64,000 bases of DNA from a phage, in the sequence record PZ445488.1; one strand, given 5' to 3'. Positions 10,295 through 19,324 of the stretch are shown in pieces. The translations under genes and the position numbers were made by a program. Every line of letters begins with the position of its first letter. Position 1 is the first letter of the stretch. Below the pieces are notes generated by a model. The model was not told the origin of the DNA. It did no database searches and saw only the letters and a list, made by a program, of their open reading frames with translations.

Positions 10295-12129
10295 TAGGAC
10301 ATCCATTCTTTACGAAGTTCTGAATCATCACCCAACAACATTTCAAAGAGTTCTTTCCAATTTTCAGGAAGTTTAACTACGTCGTACACAGGGTTCTGAA
10401 TCATTTCACGATACTCTGACTTTTCAAGGGAGCCCAATCCCTTGATGTATCGAATACTATGCTTAGGCAGCGTATCTTTAACTTCTTCATACTCAGCTAC
10501 AGTATAAAACCATTTTTGAGTTTTGCCAATTTGTGCAATAATTACAGGTGTTTTAACAAAGCGAATACGTCCTTGTTCAAACAATTCAGGCCAATTACTA
10601 AAGAAAGCAAGCAAAGCAGGATAAATACTTCCAAGGCCGTCATGATCGGCATCGGTCATAATTGCAATATTACGATAGTTCGTATTCTCTGCCTTTTCAC
10701 CAAGAATAAGACCTGTGATAGCACAGATATCAAAGAGCTCTTTGTTCTTCATCATATCAGCATATGACATACCCCAGCTATTCATCACCTTACCACGTAA
10801 TGGGAATCCGCCGTGTAGTTCACGGTCACGAACATCAATGAGATAACCAATTGCCGAATCACCTTCTGTTAAGAACAATGTCGTATCTGCATCTTTACCA
10901 CATTGGTTAGCTTTAATATGCTTATGAACCTTAGCTTTAGTTGCCTTTTTAGCTGCTTTAGTTTCTGCGGCCTTTTCTGCTGCCAATTTACGAGCTAATG
11001 CTGCTTCAATTATAGGCATTAAAACTGCTTCAGAATTCAAAATATTTTTTGCCAATTTTTTGGTATCTAATTTAATATGCGTCCGAATTTCGCCATAAGG
11101 ACTTGTTAAACGCTCTTTGGTTTGGGAATCAAAACGAAGGTTCTTCATTCCACGAACGAACATTAAGAGAGTGAGACATTCCTTGATGCGCGCTTTAGTC
11201 ACGTCGATTTTATATTTGCGTTTAATAGCCGGAATTAATTCTTCGCAAATGTCGTCCATCACACATTCAATGTGATGACCGCCATTTTTGGTATGGATGT
11301 TATTAACATAAGTTAAATGACGGAAGCCATCTGGTGACCGACCAATGGCAATAGAGCATCCATCTTGTTCTTGAATGACGGTCTCTTCATCAAATTGTTT
11401 AGCAAACTTCTTAAAGTTACCTTTAATCCTTTTGCCATTAAATTTAAATTCAATACCAGGATAAACGACTGCCAATGTTTGGAGCCGGTCTATAGTAATA
11501 TCTTGGTATATTTTTTCAAATTGATTCATTTCAAAATGAGAGAAATCAGGAATAAACTCGACCTTAGTCCCGTTGTTTTTAGACGGCTTAGATTTCCAAG
11601 AAATATTATCAGCATTATTAGAACAATTAACTGTCAATTCGTTTTTACCATCTGAAGTAGTGCCAACAAAAGAGACAGAAAAAATATTTGTTAATGAAGA
11701 ACCGACACCGTTTTGTCCACCCGTAACACGTTCTTTGTCGTCACCAAAGTTGCCACCAGCTTTTGTACGTGTCCACGCCGCAACTGGTCCTGGAATTTCT
11801 TCTCCTTCAGGAGTAATAACTGTTTCTTGAGGAATACCTCGTCCATTATCTTCAACAGTCACTTTATTAGAATTTAAATCAATACTAACAGAAATTTTAT
11901 TAGCATATTTGAAATTGGTTCGAATAGCTTCATCTACCGAGTTGTCAATAATTTCATCAATTAATTTGAGAACACCTGCAACATATTTAACCTTTTTAAA
12001 TTCACCGAATAGGAAACGTTCTTGTTCTTCATTGGCAACACTTCCAATATACATGCCAGGACGCTTCAAACAATGCTCTTTATCAGATAGCATTTCAATT
12101 TTATTATCAATCATTAGATTTTCTCTCAA
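10294..12129 (-). CDS. 39: DNA topoisomerase II large subunit, GyrB-like ATPase + Toprim (single fused 39/60-type gene)
   Basis: 611 aa continuous ORF with GyrB-like ATPase N-terminus; in T4 this function is split into genes 39 and 60. Confidence 0.85.
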   Translation of the reverse strand: MRENLMIDNKIEMLSDKEHCLKRPGMYIGSVANEEQERFLFGEFKKVKYVAGVLKLIDEIIDNSVDEAIRTNFKYANKISVSIDLNSNKVTVEDNGRGIPQETVITPEGEEIPGPVAAWTRTKAGGNFGDDKERVTGGQNGVGSSLTNIFSVSFVGTTSDGKNELTVNCSNNADNISWKSKPSKNNGTKVEFIPDFSHFEMNQFEKIYQDITIDRLQTLAVVYPGIEFKFNGKRIKGNFKKFAKQFDEETVIQEQDGCSIAIGRSPDGFRHLTYVNNIHTKNGGHHIECVMDDICEELIPAIKRKYKIDVTKARIKECLTLLMFVRGMKNLRFDSQTKERLTSPYGEIRTHIKLDTKKLAKNILNSEAVLMPIIEAALARKLAAEKAAETKAAKKATKAKVHKHIKANQCGKDADTTLFLTEGDSAIGYLIDVRDRELHGGFPLRGKVMNSWGMSYADMMKNKELFDICAITGLILGEKAENTNYRNIAIMTDADHDGLGSIYPALLAFFSNWPELFEQGRIRFVKTPVIIAQIGKTQKWFYTVAEYEEVKDTLPKHSIRYIKGLGSLEKSEYREMIQNPVYDVVKLPENWKELFEMLLGDDSELRKEWMS

Positions 12130-12790
12130 ATTGCATGACTATATTTTTGTATGAACCTTCCGGAAATCCACGTTTAACGCTTTCTTTAGCAAATTTACCG
12201 ACCTTTGGTTTATCCAATTCTAACCATAATTTATATAAAGAAGATTCATATTCCCATACAGGACTTTTACGATTTTTAAGCCCACACTTTATAAGCGCTT
12301 CCTTTGTATGTTTCTTATTATAAAATGGATTGTTTTTGCCACTCATTGCTTTAGAATGTTCAGGGCGCTTAATTCCATACATCGGATTAAGATCGCCTTT
12401 CTTGATAATTGATTGTAGTTCAATAGTTTCTTCAGAGTGATTGTGTCCATAAAATGGATTTAACTCTTTTGAAACATCCATACCAAAGCACCCATCGACT
12501 GTGGCATAAGACATGTTGAAAAATTTTTCAGATTTAACCACATTATGCAATTTCTGGTAATACAACTCACAAAACGTCGCTTCTTCACGTGTATCAAATT
12601 CGCCAATAATACATGAATCAAATAAATGAGGATTATCTTTTATCTCTTTATCATAAATTTGTTTATATTTTTTCGACTTTACCGTACCATGATAGTAACT
12701 GTTTGTATGTTTATCAAGATAAGTAGACCCTATATAAAACGGTGGCAACTTATCGCCTGTGTATATTGTTAAGTATGTTATGTATTTCAT
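12107..12790 (-). CDS. GIY-YIG homing endonuclease (Seg-like) with NUMOD3 repeats
   Basis: 227 aa; YITYLTIYTGDKLPPFYIGST...YHG GIY-YIG core plus three NPxYG..HSEET-type repeats; 3' end overlaps the first 23 nt of gene 39. Confidence 0.75.
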   Translation of the reverse strand: MKYITYLTIYTGDKLPPFYIGSTYLDKHTNSYYHGTVKSKKYKQIYDKEIKDNPHLFDSCIIGEFDTREEATFCELYYQKLHNVVKSEKFFNMSYATVDGCFGMDVSKELNPFYGHNHSEETIELQSIIKKGDLNPMYGIKRPEHSKAMSGKNNPFYNKKHTKEALIKCGLKNRKSPVWEYESSLYKLWLELDKPKVGKFAKESVKRGFPEGSYKNIVMQFERKSND

Positions 12791-12824
12791 AAAGGTATTC
12801 TATCATCCGAAATCTAAAGCAAAA
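12791..12824 (-). promoter_or_regulatory. putative MotA-dependent middle promoter
   Basis: Minus strand TGCTTTA (MotA box) - 12 nt - TAGAAT; the same GCTTTA...CGGATGATAGAAT block recurs upstream of gene 47. Confidence 0.4.
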
Positions 12825-12838
12825 AGGGCCGAAGCCCT
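12811..12838 (-). terminator. stem-loop terminator
   Basis: agggc-cgaa-gccct hairpin then UUUUUGCUUU on the minus-strand RNA. Confidence 0.45.
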
Positions 12839-13260
12839 TATTTAAATTTAATTTTCTGAAGTGCATCAATTGCAGCCAGACGCCCTTGTTCACTTTTAAC
12901 TGTAATGACCACATCACCTGATACGATCACCGAACCATCAACAAATTCTATAGAGCCTTTTTTGAAATCAACTGACGTAGGTTCCGGAACTTCTTCAAAG
13001 AATTTAAATTCTGCACCATAAAGCAGAATATCACCTTGCATACTATGAATAGTTCGGCCATAATCGCCTACGGCTTCTACAGCAATAACCGAAACGCCGT
13101 AACCAATCATCTCTTCCACAATAAAATCTTTGGACAATAAAGTAGTATGCAGATTAGTATTAAGACGTTTACCAGTCGTATTAAGAATTCTCAAGAAATT
13201 ATCTTCTTGTCCTTTGATAATACGATATTTCTTACCAACTTCAAAACCTTTAAAAGCCAT
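12838..13260 (-). CDS. hypothetical protein (140 aa)
   Basis: Track ORF, operon strand. Confidence 0.45.
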   Translation of the reverse strand: MAFKGFEVGKKYRIIKGQEDNFLRILNTTGKRLNTNLHTTLLSKDFIVEEMIGYGVSVIAVEAVGDYGRTIHSMQGDILLYGAEFKFFEEVPEPTSVDFKKGSIEFVDGSVIVSGDVVITVKSEQGRLAAIDALQKIKFK

Positions 13261-13262
13261 AA

Positions 13263-13442
13263 TTAACCCTTTTTAAGTAAGTCGTAAAAACCACCGTTCA
13301 CATGTTTAGGAGCAGAAACCCGACGAGTAGACAGACGATGACATTCAGGGCAAACATCGTTTTCTCGTTCAGAAATTCTTTTAATTTTTTCATATTCATG
13401 GCCGCAATCTTCAGATTGGCATTTATAGTCGTATAACGGCAT
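13263..13442 (-). CDS. small zinc-ribbon protein (FmdB-like CxxC...CxxC), 59 aa
   Basis: Hand-translated MPLYDYKCQSEDCGHEYE...CPEC; below the 60-aa track cut-off. Confidence 0.4.
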   Translation of the reverse strand: MPLYDYKCQSEDCGHEYEKIKRISERENDVCPECHRLSTRRVSAPKHVNGGFYDLLKKG

Positions 13443-13447
13443 TATTA

Positions 13448-13876
13448 TTATTCCTTAAAATGTGCTTTCAACATTTGATACAAAGACCATGCCTGGTCGT
13501 TATTTTTGATAGTAATCGTCATCACCGGAAATTCAGACAATTCGTCAAGTTCACCAGAATCTTGCTCTTCGGACGCTTGATACGGATTTCCAACTTCATC
13601 AAAAAACTCTGCTTCATTCGTGGAGAGCCAGATAAAGTTTTCATCAAGGATATCACCACCTGTCGCGTATCCAACCATGCCAGTAGATGTCACAATTTTA
13701 GTAGGACGACCAAGATGGTCAACATCTAATACTTTAAATGGTTCCATGCCAAGACGTCGTGCATAAATCCCATTATCGGTGTGGTCCTTAATAAACTCTT
13801 CTTGGGCACGTTTATCTTTAAATTGGTACCACGAGTTAACGCGGAATTTATTAGCCATTAGTAAGTTTCCTTCCAA
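13448..13876 (-). CDS. hypothetical protein (142 aa)
   Basis: Track ORF, operon strand. Confidence 0.45.
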
Positions 13877-14130
13877 TAAGTTGTACCGTTTTCAGTGATT
13901 TCACGGAAGATACCGTAGATAGGCATTTCATCACCGAGTTTTTCGTAAACGTAAACCACTTCAGTGTAGCATAAAAATCCGGTCCAGTTTTTCTGTACAA
14001 CAACTAAATCAGGATTAAACAGAACATCTTCAAACTCATCGATGTTTGAATCAGTAGTTACGTTTTTAATGATTTGACGTTTCATAATATTCTCCTCTTG
14101 TTTTGATAGGTCTATAGTATCATAGACCAT
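13858..14130 (-). CDS. hypothetical protein (90 aa)
   Basis: Track ORF with own PeSL-like promoter and GAGGAG RBS. Confidence 0.45.
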
Positions 14131-14144
14131 AGTTGTTGTACATC
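14105..14144 (-). promoter_or_regulatory. early promoter with embedded stem-loop (PeSL-like)
   Basis: gataggtctatagtatcatagaccatagttgttgtacatc; stem ggtctat/atagacc. Confidence 0.5.
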
Positions 14145-14667
14145 ATTTTAGCAAAATAAAATCAACTTGTTCTGCCAATGAACGTCTAAACATTAATTGA
14201 CAACTTCCGAGGATGAAATCAGGTGCTTCATAGACCGCGATGTAGTATCCTTTAGCTTTCAAGAGTTCAACATCCACCTGGTCATCAAACCATGCATAAA
14301 CCGCGTCAACGCTTTCAAATCCAAAATAGAACCCTTGAGCCCAATCTTCACTCAATTCAAATGTGTACTCAATTCTATGGTATCTTAAGATATTTTGTTC
14401 AAGAAGTTTGTCTTCATTTACTGTAGGACGATTAGGGACATTATAGTTGTCGCCGTGATGGTAGAAGTTACCTGAGAGTATTCCATGCTTATCAAGGAAC
14501 TCCCATGTTTCTTCAGAGTTGTCAGTGCCAGACCAACCGTAAGGTGAGCGAGGTTCTTTATTCCAAGAGGTTTCCCAAATTCTGACGGCTTTACCGTCTT
14601 CGATAACAATTCCTGGTAATGATTCACGTTGAGTACAAAAACTACGTTCTACGCGGTAAACTAACAT
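14143..14667 (-). CDS. hypothetical protein (174 aa)
   Basis: Track ORF with own PeSL-like promoter. Confidence 0.45.
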   Translation of the reverse strand: MLVYRVERSFCTQRESLPGIVIEDGKAVRIWETSWNKEPRSPYGWSGTDNSEETWEFLDKHGILSGNFYHHGDNYNVPNRPTVNEDKLLEQNILRYHRIEYTFELSEDWAQGFYFGFESVDAVYAWFDDQVDVELLKAKGYYIAVYEAPDFILGSCQLMFRRSLAEQVDFILLK

Positions 14668-14672
14668 ATTAT

Positions 14673-14722
14673 TCTCCTCTGGTTGATATGGTTATAATAT
14701 CAAAACCAGAGGAGAAGTAAAC
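14673..14722 (-). promoter_or_regulatory. early promoter with embedded stem-loop (PeSL-like)
   Basis: 12-bp stem tctcctctggtt/aaccagaggaga around a loop containing tataat; GTTTAC at 14717-14722 on minus strand; the distal stem arm doubles as the GAGGAG RBS. Confidence 0.55.
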
Positions 14723-14726
14723 AACT

Positions 14727-15146
14727 TTATGCGAAAGCAGCTGGGCTATATTTTTTAATTTGGAATTCAGGAACTACCATGAACTGACCAGCGAAAACGA
14801 TGTTATAAAGCTTAACACCATCTTCTACCCAACGGTCGCTAATAAATCCGGCGATTTGCTTAGTTTTCCATGGCGTTCCATCAGTTGCCGCAGCAATAGT
14901 GAATTCATGGTCTTTTTCAACAGAAACTGATCTGCATAGTCCCCATTTGAACGCTTTTTCTTCTGGCTCAATGAACTGGCTTGAGACGTAGCCAATATTA
15001 CCATTAGCATCACGAACTTTAACTTGGTTACGACCAAAAACCGGATCACTCACAGAAAGAACTTCAACCAACTTCCCGGCAACTTTAGAGCGAGAAGCAA
15101 CAGATACATATACGTAATCACCTGTAGAGAGATTTACAATATTCAT
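14727..15146 (-). CDS. paralog family protein A (139 aa)
   Basis: C-terminal GFISDRWVEDGVKLYNIVF shared with the next two ORFs. Confidence 0.5.
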   Translation of the reverse strand: MNIVNLSTGDYVYVSVASRSKVAGKLVEVLSVSDPVFGRNQVKVRDANGNIGYVSSQFIEPEEKAFKWGLCRSVSVEKDHEFTIAAATDGTPWKTKQIAGFISDRWVEDGVKLYNIVFAGQFMVVPEFQIKKYSPAAFA

Positions 15147-15155
15147 AATAATTCC

Positions 15156-15641
15156 TTAAGCTTTACGAGGAGACACATAGCGAGTGATTTCAGATTCTTT
15201 AACAACTCTGAAGTCACCTAAGAATATGATATTGTATAACTTTTCACCATCTTCAACCCATTGGTCACTAATGAAGCCGCACATAGTATCAGTTTTGCTT
15301 GGATAACCGTATTCATCGATGAAGTCAAATTCTTTATCAGTCTGGAATTCAACGCCTTTGCAAAGGGCCCATTTGAACTGTACATTATGCTCTGTGGATT
15401 CAACTTTTTCTCTTGAAGCAAAAGCACTACTCACAGGCGTTTCCAAGAACTTTGCACGAACATAAGCAAATTTGGTTTCCTGTGTCCCAAAACTAGGAAT
15501 AATACGAACTTTTACCTCAGAATCTTCATCTTTAACGCCTTCTTTAAGTTGAATACTTACAACTTCGACCAATTTTCCTGCGGCTTTAGAACGAGATTTG
15601 TTAGATACGCGAACGATTTCACCAATAATACCAAGATTCAT
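15156..15641 (-). CDS. paralog family protein B (about 162 aa from internal Met)
   Basis: Track ORF 15156-15704 trimmed to MNLGIIGEIV...; shares SRSKAAGKLVEV and GFISDQWVEDGEKLYNIIF with neighbours. Confidence 0.5.
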   Translation of the reverse strand: MNLGIIGEIVRVSNKSRSKAAGKLVEVVSIQLKEGVKDEDSEVKVRIIPSFGTQETKFAYVRAKFLETPVSSAFASREKVESTEHNVQFKWALCKGVEFQTDKEFDFIDEYGYPSKTDTMCGFISDQWVEDGEKLYNIIFLGDFRVVKESEITRYVSPRKA

Positions 15642-15703
15642 AATTTCTCTCTCTTTGTTTAAATTGAATTCATTATACTCCATCCATCCTTGGATATACA
15701 ACA

Positions 15704-16198
15704 TTAATTAAGGATATTAACCACAGCACTACGTGGAACTACACTAAAATCACCTGCATGAACAACGTTCAGAAGTTCAACACCGTCTTCAATCCACTGG
15801 TCAGTTACCCATCCATTTACTGGACCTGCGAACGGGCGTCGAATTGAAACATATTTACACAGCAAATCAGTAGGCTCAATAGGCTTAATCAGAGTACCGT
15901 ACATACAAGCGATATCCATATCAATACAGATGTCTTTAACGGGTTCTACTTCTTCAATCAACAGTTCAAAGTCTGTGCTTGGAAGGGCGGTAGTAGAAAT
16001 TGTACCATATGAATTTTTAATTTCTAAGAATAACCAAGGGCCTTCAGCTTGTTTGATGAAGTTAACAATAGTGAAACTATTGCCTTGAGTGGCACCTAAA
16101 ATTTCACAAAACTTTTCGTAAGCTCGCACTGAAGCACTGTACCAGTTGATTTGTTTTTCGTCTTTCAGGATGTAAGTAGCCGTAGTATTGATATTCAT
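15704..16198 (-). CDS. paralog family protein C (164 aa)
   Basis: C-terminal GWVTDQWIEDGVELLNVV motif. Confidence 0.45.
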   Translation of the reverse strand: MNINTTATYILKDEKQINWYSASVRAYEKFCEILGATQGNSFTIVNFIKQAEGPWLFLEIKNSYGTISTTALPSTDFELLIEEVEPVKDICIDMDIACMYGTLIKPIEPTDLLCKYVSIRRPFAGPVNGWVTDQWIEDGVELLNVVHAGDFSVVPRSAVVNILN

Positions 16199-16228
16199 AA
16201 TGTTTTTCCTGTTTGGTTAAGATAGAAA

Positions 16229-16259
16229 GATTATACTCCAACCATCCTTGGTTGTAAAC
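16229..16259 (-). promoter_or_regulatory. early promoter, hairpin-in-spacer type
   Basis: attatactccaaccatccttggttgtaaac = minus GTTTAC-18 nt-TATAAT; spacer holds the caacca/tggttg hairpin; repeated at 57174 and 58193. Confidence 0.55.
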
Positions 16260-16264
16260 TGGTT

Positions 16265-16942
16265 TTATCGCTGTTTTACACTTATCGGGTCAGGATTCTC
16301 AGGGACATCTTCAAGGCCAAGCGCATAACGCTGAGCATATTTTAACATCAAAATATCTTTAGCACAATCGTGAATACTATCATGGGCAACGAATCCTTTT
16401 AGCGTACCCATCGGTAATGGACACATACTTAATCCTCGTGTCAACGAGTAAGCTTCGATTGCCGTACGAATATCACGTTGAGCCCAGAATTTAACAGGTT
16501 CTAATTTATCGGTATCAATATCTGGTTCAAGAACACCTTCATCACGATAGAGGTCACGAATCAAATCGACCAAGATCGGGAAGTCAAAGCTCATACCACG
16601 GCACCACATCTGTGATTTCCATTGGTCAACTTTATTAGCTCGACAATAATCTAAAAAGATTTTAATGCCTTCAAGCGTAGTGACATCGTCTTCAGACGGA
16701 GCCAGGTTTTTACGTGCTTCTGCTGATTGTTCTTTCCACCATTTCATAGTGGATTTAGCGAAAACTCGCTTCCCTTTTTGAGAAGCTAAATTAAATTTAA
16801 TTCGCTTACCTCGTTGAACAAGTTCTTCAAATGTTTCAACAACTTCAGGGTCGGAATTATATGCAATAACCGCAAGGTCAATAACAGCCGCTTTTGATGT
16901 ATTGCCGAATGTTTCAAAATCTATAATAACATCAGTGCTCAT
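16265..16942 (-). CDS. dexA: exonuclease A (DEDD 3'-5' exonuclease)
   Basis: 225 aa (T4 DexA 227 aa); N-terminal DFETFG exonuclease motif; adjacent to dda. Confidence 0.7.
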   Translation of the reverse strand: MSTDVIIDFETFGNTSKAAVIDLAVIAYNSDPEVVETFEELVQRGKRIKFNLASQKGKRVFAKSTMKWWKEQSAEARKNLAPSEDDVTTLEGIKIFLDYCRANKVDQWKSQMWCRGMSFDFPILVDLIRDLYRDEGVLEPDIDTDKLEPVKFWAQRDIRTAIEAYSLTRGLSMCPLPMGTLKGFVAHDSIHDCAKDILMLKYAQRYALGLEDVPENPDPISVKQR

Positions 16943-16951
16943 AATTTTCTC

Positions 16952-18265
16952 TCAAATAAAATGGACGTCAAAACGACCGCGAGTTGTGCCGACATACAAT
17001 AACTGTTTAGCTAATTCTGAATCAGCATAATGGATACACGGTGTATAAACAAAGGCCGTGTCAACAGACATACCCTGGGCCTTATGGAAGGTTGATACTG
17101 GTAGTGCCTTCACCTTAGTGAACATACGTTTAGCATCCCAGAATTCACTCCATGGAGCTTTACCACCTTTATTCCAGAATTTGTATGTTTCTGCTGTCTT
17201 AGCCAAAAACAAATTGAATTTATAAAGCTCTTCTTCAGAAGAAATAACCTTTATATCCTCGCGGACGTATTCTTCATCATCCACATATGTTTCTACTGTA
17301 AGATTCCAATATCGTATCATATACTCGCCTGAAACACCACGTGCTTTAACGAATGTAGACGTTTCTACAGCATCTCGAATACGAACGAATTGCCCGTTAT
17401 TGAAAAGCATTTCGGTCATATTTTTGCCATCTAGCTTATACGTCTTGGTAAACGGCTCTTGTAGAACAATGACCTCGTCTTTAATAAATGGTTTTTCTGT
17501 TTCGAGAAGTTTTCGGCGAATAATTGAATTCAACTTATCTACTGACTTATTTGTGAATGCCATCATTCGATTTTCGAAAAGGTCTTCAGGAGTTTTAACG
17601 ACGTTAAAATAGTTCATCATATACGATTTAAGGTCTGTATATCCATGAACACCGTGCCCATCAACTACTTTATCGTAAATCCATTTGCCATTACGAATAT
17701 CAGTCGCAACATCAATAATTGGTGCATTGCTACGTTTAACTTCTGTAAGGTTGCATTGCACGAAGTCTTTGTGAGTGAAGAAAGGACTTAGATACGCAGT
17801 TGATTCGCCTGGGTCTACCGGTCGAATTTGACATCGGTCGCCGATTCCAATTACTGTGCACCATTTAGGGATACTAGCTAACATTATTTTAAACAGAGAA
17901 CGGTCACACATTGACGCTTCATCAAATAACAGTACACGACACAAGGCTAAGTCGGGAACCTTTTTCTGTTCAAATAATACGTTTTCTTCGTATGTAGTTG
18001 GGTTGATTTTAAGAATGCTATGAATAGTCGATGCTTCTTGACCTGCAAGTTTGCTTAGAACCTTTTTAGCAGCGTGTGTAGGGGCTGCTAAAATAATACC
18101 TGATTCTCCAGAAGAAATAAGGGCTTCAACGATGAATCTAGTAAGGGTTGTTTTACCTGTACCAGCAGGCCCATTAATAGTTACGTGATGTTTCTTTTCT
18201 TTAATAGCTTTCATAACAACGTTGAAGGCGTTTTTCTGGCCTTCGGTCAAATCGTCAAATGTCAT
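16952..18265 (-). CDS. dda: Dda SF1 DNA helicase
   Basis: 437 aa (T4 Dda 439 aa); Walker A GPAGTGKTT; synteny. Confidence 0.8.
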   Translation of the reverse strand: MTFDDLTEGQKNAFNVVMKAIKEKKHHVTINGPAGTGKTTLTRFIVEALISSGESGIILAAPTHAAKKVLSKLAGQEASTIHSILKINPTTYEENVLFEQKKVPDLALCRVLLFDEASMCDRSLFKIMLASIPKWCTVIGIGDRCQIRPVDPGESTAYLSPFFTHKDFVQCNLTEVKRSNAPIIDVATDIRNGKWIYDKVVDGHGVHGYTDLKSYMMNYFNVVKTPEDLFENRMMAFTNKSVDKLNSIIRRKLLETEKPFIKDEVIVLQEPFTKTYKLDGKNMTEMLFNNGQFVRIRDAVETSTFVKARGVSGEYMIRYWNLTVETYVDDEEYVREDIKVISSEEELYKFNLFLAKTAETYKFWNKGGKAPWSEFWDAKRMFTKVKALPVSTFHKAQGMSVDTAFVYTPCIHYADSELAKQLLYVGTTRGRFDVHFI

Positions 18266-18573
18266 CGTAAAGTCCCTGCAATTGGAATACTAACAATACG
18301 ACCCGTGTCCAGGATTCGTTGATATAATCTTTGCGTCTCCGCATCTAGTTTAACGTGTTTCATTTCAAGCTTATTAAACCAGAACTTACGCGGAGTTTCG
18401 ACCATTCTTAGAACTCCCATTTTTAAATCTGTTTTATACTGTGTTTTCAAAGTATCGAAAACTTTATCTGCAATATCCTTTCTAAAAAATACTGCAGGAC
18501 GATGTTCATCAAGTGGAACCGGGACAGTAAATCCTTCCATATCTCGATAAACTATTGCATATACATAAACCAT
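18262..18573 (-). CDS. hypothetical protein (103 aa), dda.1-like position
   Basis: Track ORF overlapping the dda start by 4 nt. Confidence 0.45.
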   Translation of the reverse strand: MVYVYAIVYRDMEGFTVPVPLDEHRPAVFFRKDIADKVFDTLKTQYKTDLKMGVLRMVETPRKFWFNKLEMKHVKLDAETQRLYQRILDTGRIVSIPIAGTLR

Positions 18574-18575
18574 AA

Positions 18576-19324
18576 TTAACCTTTAATCAGTTGGAATAAT
18601 GATGCGCTAAGTGGTAAGCCACGTTTCAATTTTAATTTACCAATGAAACCAATCTTTTCAAAACGTTGCAGACCTTGGATAACTTTATCATATGTATCGA
18701 AAAGCGATTCAGCGTCAGTTAATTTAGTTTTAGTTTTCCAGTCAGAGCCTTTAAGAAGAACATTGAGTTTAGTAAGTTCATGTCCTTCCGCTTGATGTGA
18801 ACCATTAATGCGTGCTTTCAAAGCAACAATTCTAAGTTTAGATTCGTTAGATAAAGGTTGATTTTTCATCATGTTCGCCATATGCTTAACACGATTTTCA
18901 CGTTTTGCTCGGATTTTTAAAATAGTACCATAAACCTTTTTAATTTGGGCCCATTTCTTCTCGTCGAGATTAAGTTTCTCTACTTTACGGACAGAAGGAT
19001 TAGCGATACGTCTTGCAATGGCATCACGTTTCTCAATAAGTTCTTCTAATGTTAAATCAGAACGAGCCGTGTTATATTTTTTCTTAACTGGGATAACATT
19101 ACCTTTAATGTATCCTATATCGTTATTAAAACGTTCTAAGGATAATTTCTCACCTTCAACAGAGTTATTGAAAGATTCACCTGAGTAAGCGCAGACCTTT
19201 TGATCAAGAATGTTTTTAAGGTAATTAAAGTCTAAGTTAAAATCCTTAGAGCGTCTCTTCGCAGAAGCTCTGGTGTGGTAAAGACGACGATTGATTTTTT
19301 TTTAATTTTATTATTTGATAACAT
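18576..19324 (-). pseudogene. srd: srd-like gene interrupted by a 1-nt frame change in an A9 run (or sequencing error / slippage site)
   Basis: ATG at 19324 with AGGA RBS gives only 30 codons; shifting frame in the A9 tract (plus T9 at 19295-19303) joins a stop-free frame running into track ORF 18576-18881, about 250 aa in total (T4 Srd 247 aa). Confidence 0.45.

Follow-up and report, generated by a model that had tools for sequence, protein, structure and literature searches.

Three small genes lie in tandem on the minus strand of the window, by which we mean the whole 64,000-nucleotide stretch of phage sequence record PZ445488.1 analyzed here. Their open reading frames run over 14727-15146 (139 aa), 15156-15704 (a mechanical 182 aa) and 15704-16198 (164 aa), and they sit between the topoisomerase gene and dexA, as an earlier note on this DNA had claimed. 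The 4.1 kb around them is 97-98% identical in DNA to genomes of Mosigvirus, the RB69-like T-even phages (for example OLB35, Shigella phage Shf125875 and phiC120), and by this measure the window is an RB69-like Mosigvirus of the T-even group. Gene order is dexA, motB.1, motB, motB-like, motB.2-like, cef and goF, identical in RB69 and Shf125875; the latter is annotated as topoisomerase 60plus39, ORF005c, 39.2, goF, cef, motB.2, ORF010c ("similar to motB"), motB, motB.1, dexA and dda. The proposed equivalence to the motB/cef/goF region of T4 holds, and the three genes occupy the position that defines MotB proper: the early region from dexA to cef/goF, on one strand. T4 itself has the order cef, motB, motB.1, motB.2, dexA, so that the motB.2 homolog adjoins dexA in T4 and cef in the window. 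Plus-strand open reading frames within the region are 40-65 aa long and mechanical only, and none is supported.

All three proteins carry the W(V/I)EDG C-terminal motif that had been reported for them, within a shared core of which each protein has its own version (GFISDRWVEDGVKLYNIVF, GFISDQWVEDGEKLYNIIF and GWVTDQWIEDGVELLNVVH; consensus G[FWY][IV][ST]D[QR]W[VI]EDG.[KE]L[YL]N[IV][IV]). The 139-aa protein aligns with the 161/182-aa protein over its full length (42% identity, BLASTP E 3e-29), and the 164-aa protein aligns with the other two over just its last 29-36 residues (E 1e-10 and 6e-10). A comparison of the MotB.1-family and MotB-family profiles with hhalign gives a probability of 99% and E 5.6e-18. 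The pairwise and profile-profile values together establish that the C-terminal similarity is real. The motif is invariant across the 33 and 37 homologs of the two family alignments, and all three proteins exceed the curated whole-protein gathering score of 25 bits for Pfam PF17613 (motB, Modifier of transcription), at 180.6 bits for the 161/182-aa protein, 75.6 for the 139-aa protein and 35.3 for the 164-aa protein. The match of the last spans residues 84-159 and covers the C-terminal half of the profile alone. An N-terminal SRSK..AGKLVEV block, which the earlier note had extended to all three, is present in the 139-aa and 161-aa proteins and missing from the 164-aa protein, whose N-terminus is unrelated. 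Six-frame HMM and regular-expression scans of the 64 kb window found no fourth copy of the motif. At its C-terminus each of the three carries the MotB C-terminal domain (CTD), modeled as an all-beta barrel of ~55-75 residues. Judged by these alignments the genes are paralogous through this domain, but they are not an equivalent triplet: two encode KOW-type MotB proteins and one encodes MotB.1.

Comparison with T4 MotB settles the identity of the middle gene as the motB ortholog. Its 161-aa product (15156-15641, minus strand, read from Met22 of the 182-aa frame) matches PF17613 almost end to end (E 2.7e-53, positions 5-157 out of 162) and phrog_1671 at E 2e-69, and is 57% identical to T4 MotB (NP_049626) over its full length in a BLASTP alignment that begins at Met22. 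We take the product to be 161 aa because the first 21 codons of the 182-aa frame overlap a copy of a ~64-nt promoter/leader, described below, and T4 has an early promoter at that place. The MotB proteins of T4 and RB69 likewise start at the equivalent of Met22, and the 182-aa reading is rejected. MotB proper (phrog_1671) is defined by a full-length two-domain match, with a KOW-like N-terminal domain carrying SRSKAAGKLVEV and a FKW...WVEDG.KLYN CTD. The 161-aa protein (PF17613 positions 5-157) and the 139-aa protein (phrog_1671 positions 2-166) both show this match, whereas the 164-aa protein matches positions 124-161 alone. Like T4 MotB, the window protein has a basic KOW-like N-terminal domain bearing SRSKAAGKLVEV, an acidic linker and the CTD, and its gene is placed between dexA and cef with a putative early-type promoter ahead of it. 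Unlike T4 MotB (pI 9.2), it is acidic overall (pI 5.6), and its DNA affinity could therefore differ. The window allele is only 77% identical to RB69 MotB although the flanks are ~98% identical, and motB is unusually divergent within Mosigvirus (dS against RB69 of 0.65, versus 0.07-0.23 for its neighbors).

The second MotB copy (14727-15146, minus strand, 139 aa) starts 9 nt past the motB stop codon and is of the RB69ORF010c type (phrog_1671 E 6.6e-51). It retains the two-domain plan of MotB with a shortened N-terminal hairpin and, in the family alignment, a deletion of the ~22-residue linker; the net charge of its N-terminal domain is 0. If the CTD is a docking module, as considered below, this protein would amount to a compact form of MotB whose N-terminal domain is less basic. 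The equivalent gene in Shf125875 is annotated 'similar to RB69ORF010c; similar to motB', and the window protein is a member of the clade of the RB69ORF010c / RB32ORF010c 'MotB-like protein', from which it shows no difference. This clade is tight (84-96% identity, length invariant at 139 aa across 25 clusters), and its members always lie immediately downstream of motB. In addition, three proteins from short metagenomic contigs (P0055, P0045 and P0035) join a MotB-type N-terminal domain and linker to a CTD or C-terminal end of the 139-aa type. These chimeras look like products of unequal recombination between tandem paralogs, in which two genes would have collapsed to one.

The 164-aa gene is a full-length motB.1 (15704-16198, minus strand). 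Its product matches phrog_2333 at E 1.3e-82, residues 1-164 aligning to profile positions 42-210, and is 37% identical to T4 MotB.1 (BLASTP E 1e-26). The end-to-end match to phrog_2333 that marks this family, including a non-KOW N-terminal domain and a DPTDLLC...WIEDGVELLNVVH CTD, is what we find here. MotB.1 comprises a predicted beta-rich N-terminal domain (residues ~1-85), a disordered linker (86-107) containing DMDIACMYGTLIKP, and a MotB-type CTD (108-164; EPTDLLC...GWVTDQWIEDGVELLNVVHAGDFSVVPRSAV, window 15707-15877, minus strand), which is the sole part common to the other two genes. T4 MotB.1 ('Category 2' of Patterson-West et al. 2021) has the same CTD subtype, DPTDLLC...GWVTDQWIEDGVELLNVVH, but T4-type MotB.1 proteins (143-145 aa) are without the ~20-residue linker insertion that holds DMDIACMYGTLIKP. 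The linker motif, D(M/T)D(I/V)A(C/S)MYGT(L)IKP at window positions 15878-15943, travels with the MotB.1-type CTD in other proteins (P0096, P0097, P0104, P0105, P0124, P0125, P0143 and P0222-P0224), and is missing from the 143-145-aa T4 type. Its place is the linker in this phage, as in KOW-type proteins from Klebsiella phages, and the extreme N-terminus in other architectures; within the window, a search for D[MT]D[IV]A[CS]MY finds it in MotB.1 alone. AlphaFold2 predicts this region to be disordered, and the motif is a candidate short linear interaction motif. Taken together, the identity of the three genes as motB.1, motB and a second motB copy is, by sequence comparison, close to certain.

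Two reference genomes carry disrupted versions of motB.1. In T4 (NC_000866.4, 7289-7316, minus strand; compare window 15707-15800), one extra G lies within the WIEDG codons (ATTGGAAGATGG versus ATTGAAGATGG), cutting the protein to 119 aa ('13.8 kDa'), and the missing residues EDGVELLNVVHAGEYSVVPRSAVVAILN are encoded in the next frame. The extra G occurs only in AF158101/NC_000866 and not in 13 other T4, T4T, RB55 and RB59 records, and an intact 143-aa T4-type MotB.1 (P0078) is found on 256 contigs. As read from these records, the 119-aa form is a single-base frameshift artefact of the reference, and the true T4 MotB.1 is a 143-aa protein with a complete CTD. Kim et al. 2025 give the MotB.1 monomer as 13.8 kDa and sourced T4 sequences from NC_000866.4 (PMC12152347), suggesting that their MotB.1 constructs were probably of the truncated form. 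The RB69 '29-aa hypothetical peptide' (RB69p012, NC_004928 5377-5873; 'Category 3' of Patterson-West et al. 2021) is a C-terminal remnant of motB.1: compared with the window, two single-base insertions in the RB69 reference (ccgTttcgc and gacggTtgttg) split the gene. By the same comparison this peptide is a frameshift artefact, with the same kind of origin as the 119-aa T4 protein.

Upstream of motB.1, a consensus scan identifies a putative early-type sigma-70 promoter (TTTACA-17-TATAAT, 11/12 matches; 16230-16258, minus strand). A repeat search shows a similar leader and promoter-like sequence upstream of motB (15636-15700, minus strand), with TATAAT at 15672-15677 and a weak -35 element, lying within the mechanical extension of the 182-aa frame; T4 has a clear early promoter, GTTTAC-N17-TATAAT, at the equivalent place. 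The ~64-nt promoter/leader copies (ccaaggatggNtggagtataat onward to the ATG) before motB.1 (16193-16256) and motB (15636-15698) are ~75-80% identical, and the start-to-start spacing of 557-558 nt suggests duplication of a whole promoter-leader-gene unit. A plausible Shine-Dalgarno/ribosome-binding site precedes each of the three genes.

Further along the same strand lies a strong RNA hairpin at 14672-14716 (dG -25.5 kcal/mol, z -5.0 against shuffles), and the Shine-Dalgarno sequence GAGGAG that serves the 174-aa motB.2-like gene (ATG at 14667) falls in its 3' arm. The -10 box of an early-type promoter-like site (14694-14721, TTTACT-16-TATTAT) overlaps the loop and inner stem of this hairpin. 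The ribosome-binding site of the motB.2-like gene would thus be sequestered in read-through transcripts and accessible in those that start at the proximal promoter, an organization well known from T4. Cef (14083-14102) and the motB.2-like gene (14665-14684) have near-identical ribosome-binding and start contexts, AAC(A/C)AGAGGAGAATA(T/A)TATG, which places the real cef start at 14085 (75 aa, MKRQII...) and not at the start of the 90-aa open reading frame. Directly downstream of the fused 60plus39 topoisomerase gene, with a 23-nt overlap with its start, lies a free-standing homing-endonuclease-like frame (12107-12790, minus strand, 227 aa) with NUMOD3 motifs and matches to phrog_10820 and phrog_314. 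Shf125875 and RB69 have just a short intergenic gap there, so this frame is an insertion found in this phage alone or in some of its relatives. The region also contains two GoF-like paralogs on the minus strand, both phrog_622 (12838-13260 and 13448-13858). They are goF, with 72% identity to T4 GoF, and a 140-aa protein of the RB69ORF005c type. The latter matches the MotB.1 family phrog_2333 weakly (E 0.0017), in agreement with a published link between the N-terminal folds of GoF and MotB.1. When the MotB.1-family profile was compared with both GoF-like proteins of the window as a check on this link, nothing significant resulted. An Rfam scan of both strands over 12000-19000 gave a single match, to Y_RNA, which falls below threshold (26 bits; cut-off 38) and which we take as chance.

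A tblastn search with the 164-aa protein finds 749 phage records, and one with the 139-aa protein finds 778, of which 208 match at 80% identity or more, none at 60-80%, and 570 below 60%; these 570 are MotB proper. An exhaustive HMM search with the CTD profile against 1.84 billion cluster representatives gave 28 hits. Two of these (P0231 and P0234) are long repeat proteins that look spurious, and the rest are small MotB- or MotB.1-type proteins with KOW-type, LSm-type or doubled N-terminal domains before the same CTD, leaving no credible case among these representatives outside T-even-type proteins. A chance or low-complexity origin of the similarity has essentially no probability: the shared region in the 164-aa protein is short (~30 aa), and nothing else speaks for such a match, which is refuted by the pairwise and profile E-values, the Pfam scores and the invariance of the motif. 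The similarity therefore survives formal alignment statistics, which the earlier note had set as its refutation test. That note had also read the genes as a lineage-specific expansion, which in its strict form would be an uncharacterized small family distinct from motB/cef/goF and peculiar to this lineage. The 139-aa copy is indeed absent from T4 and occurs in just 208 of the 778 matching records, and the gene order differs from that of T4, with the motB.2 homolog by cef rather than dexA. However, Pfam, PHROG and BLASTP all identify the family as MotB itself, and the motB and motB.1 pair, of which T4 has both members, is found in Tequatrovirus, Mosigvirus and phages of Klebsiella, Yersinia and Enterobacter. 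The 139-aa copy occurs at the same position in Tequatrovirus GiZh, RB68 and Aplg8, directly after motB in GiZh, and its 37-42% identity to MotB proteins marks it as an old duplicate. Moreover, the same layout, with motB in two copies alongside motB.1, has been published for RB69 (PMC7827196, section 3.2). MotB identity, the wide distribution of the pair and the Tequatrovirus copies together refute the expansion as a whole, and we regard it as very improbable. What stands is narrower: the reading fits the 139-aa copy only, which is patchy, and even this copy is shared with some Tequatrovirus.

It is equally improbable that this is a dispensable, hyperplastic region in which one or two of the genes are decaying duplicates, on the way to pseudogenes, with no function of their own. 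In favor of this reading, T4 does not require the region (PMC7827196), the T4 and RB69 reference genomes have frameshifted motB.1 genes, and the metagenomic fusion proteins described above could be read in the same way. Against this, dN/dS relative to RB69 and GiZh is 0.11-0.30 across all three genes (139-aa gene 0.11-0.15, motB 0.22-0.23, motB.1 0.18-0.30), the length of the 139-aa protein is invariant in its clade, each gene has a plausible ribosome-binding site, and the frameshift in T4 is seen in the reference record only. More than 200 genomes carry the 139-aa form intact. By these substitution ratios, all three genes are functional and under purifying selection. Between the window and GiZh, protein identity is 89% for the 139-aa protein and 74% for MotB, compared with 68% for dexA, 48% for motB.1 and 35% for motB.2 in the flanks, and dS is 0.54 for the 139-aa gene and 0.97 for motB versus 2.2 for dexA. 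The motB and motB-like block thus appears to move between genera, and the motB/motB.1 pair is old within T-even phages. We conclude that the cluster very probably represents the motB.1, motB and motB-like early genes of an RB69-like T-even phage, with a MotB-type function, an old gene pair and a mobile block.

AlphaFold2 models built with family alignments reach a mean pLDDT of 84.8 and a pTM of 0.67 for the 139-aa protein, and a mean pLDDT of 79.4 for MotB.1, whose CTD is at ~90 and whose linker residues 86-107 fall below 50. Strand order in each domain is beta-beta-beta-beta-3_10-beta. An OB-fold is recognized by a barrel of five strands, in which a helix separates strand 3 from strand 4, and by OB-fold structural neighbors; no OB-fold is among the top structural matches of our models, and matches to EF-P span just ~60 residues. 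Against viral models, every Foldseek match with an E of 0.001 or better is a protein from a T4-type phage. The tandem SH3-like barrels of Spt5 KOW6-KOW7, NusG KOW, 53BP1 tandem Tudor and KIN17 resemble the models in fold only, not in family or function, at 10-21% sequence identity and without detectable sequence homology, and a sequence search of the PDB with MotB gave no meaningful match (best E 0.93). Our models favor, though not decisively, an SH3/Tudor/KOW-like barrel for the CTD over an OB-fold. Patterson-West et al. 2021 had proposed, from HHpred, an OB-fold of the cold-shock DNA-binding type for the MotB CTD (PMC7827196). Kim et al. 2025 describe the N-terminal domain of MotB.1 as an LSm/SH3-like barrel common to GoF and Frd.2, a family defined by an N-terminal five-stranded bent antiparallel beta sheet (PMC12152347).

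In T4, the presence of motB about doubles the burst size. A 2021 paper by Son et al. in NAR is said, from its title, to report nucleoid compaction by MotB and H-NS de-repression. T4 MotB binds DNA tightly and independently of sequence, alters H-NS-DNA complexes and is toxic in E. coli (PMC6070864, PMC7827196); it changes the H-NS footprint and up-regulates genes of the H-NS regulon (PMC7827196). Patterson-West et al. 2021 considered that either MotB domain could bind DNA, and did not find a DNA-independent contact between MotB and H-NS (PMC7827196). T4 motB.1 knock-outs are without phenotype in laboratory conditions (PMC12152347). By orthology with T4 MotB at 57% identity, for which these properties have been shown, we propose that the 161-aa protein would be an abundant early nucleoid-associated protein with tight, sequence-nonspecific binding to the DNA of both host and phage, and that it would alter H-NS-DNA complexes and lead to de-repression of H-NS-silenced genes.

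The net charge of the KOW domain is +4 in the window MotB and +5 in T4 MotB, suggesting that DNA binding most likely sits there. The conserved CTD core is acidic, with a CTD net charge of -4 for the window MotB and -3 for MotB.1, and the domain also occurs in MotB.1, a strongly acidic protein of pI 4.5; the CTD is thus likelier to be a docking or self-association module than a DNA-binding surface. Judged from charge and domain distribution only, we give this division of labor, with DNA binding in the KOW domain and docking or self-association in the CTD, about an even chance. In front of the CTD, MotB and the 139-aa paralog have a KOW-like barrel and MotB.1 a different beta-rich domain; under this division of labor MotB.1 would contribute another N-terminal activity to the shared partner or assembly. 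In a more specific proposal, the CTD would act as an SH3/Tudor-like docking or oligomerization module through which MotB, its short paralog and MotB.1 assemble with one another or on one host target. Such an assembly would join a DNA-coating KOW domain to an LSm-like, possibly RNA-binding, MotB.1 domain. We consider this proposal unlikely. The alternative in which the CTD is a cold-shock-type OB-fold that confers DNA binding, making all three proteins DNA-binding and redundant on the nucleoid, is unlikely too, if slightly less so.

The three-gene cluster is a published family met again in a close relative of RB69. Patterson-West et al. 2021 aligned 102 phage homologs, showed that MotB and MotB.1 share the CTD, and suggested that one of motB and motB.1 probably arose by duplication of the other (PMC7827196). 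With the family, the shared domain and the RB69-type layout (motB twice, together with motB.1) already in the literature, Pfam and PHROGs, the cluster has little discovery value in itself; what we add is the placement of the CTD fold, purifying selection on all three genes, and the frameshift artefacts in T4 and RB69. For T4 specialists, possible uses are that the CTD looks SH3/Tudor/KOW-like rather than OB-like, with a charge pattern that argues against a DNA-binding surface, and that the 119-aa MotB.1 of recent experiments is truncated, the RB69 29-aa category having a like origin. If the CTD does prove to be a docking module, the experiments published with negative outcome for T4 MotB.1 would have to be done again, as they probably used the 119-aa reference form, which is without the rest of the CTD barrel.
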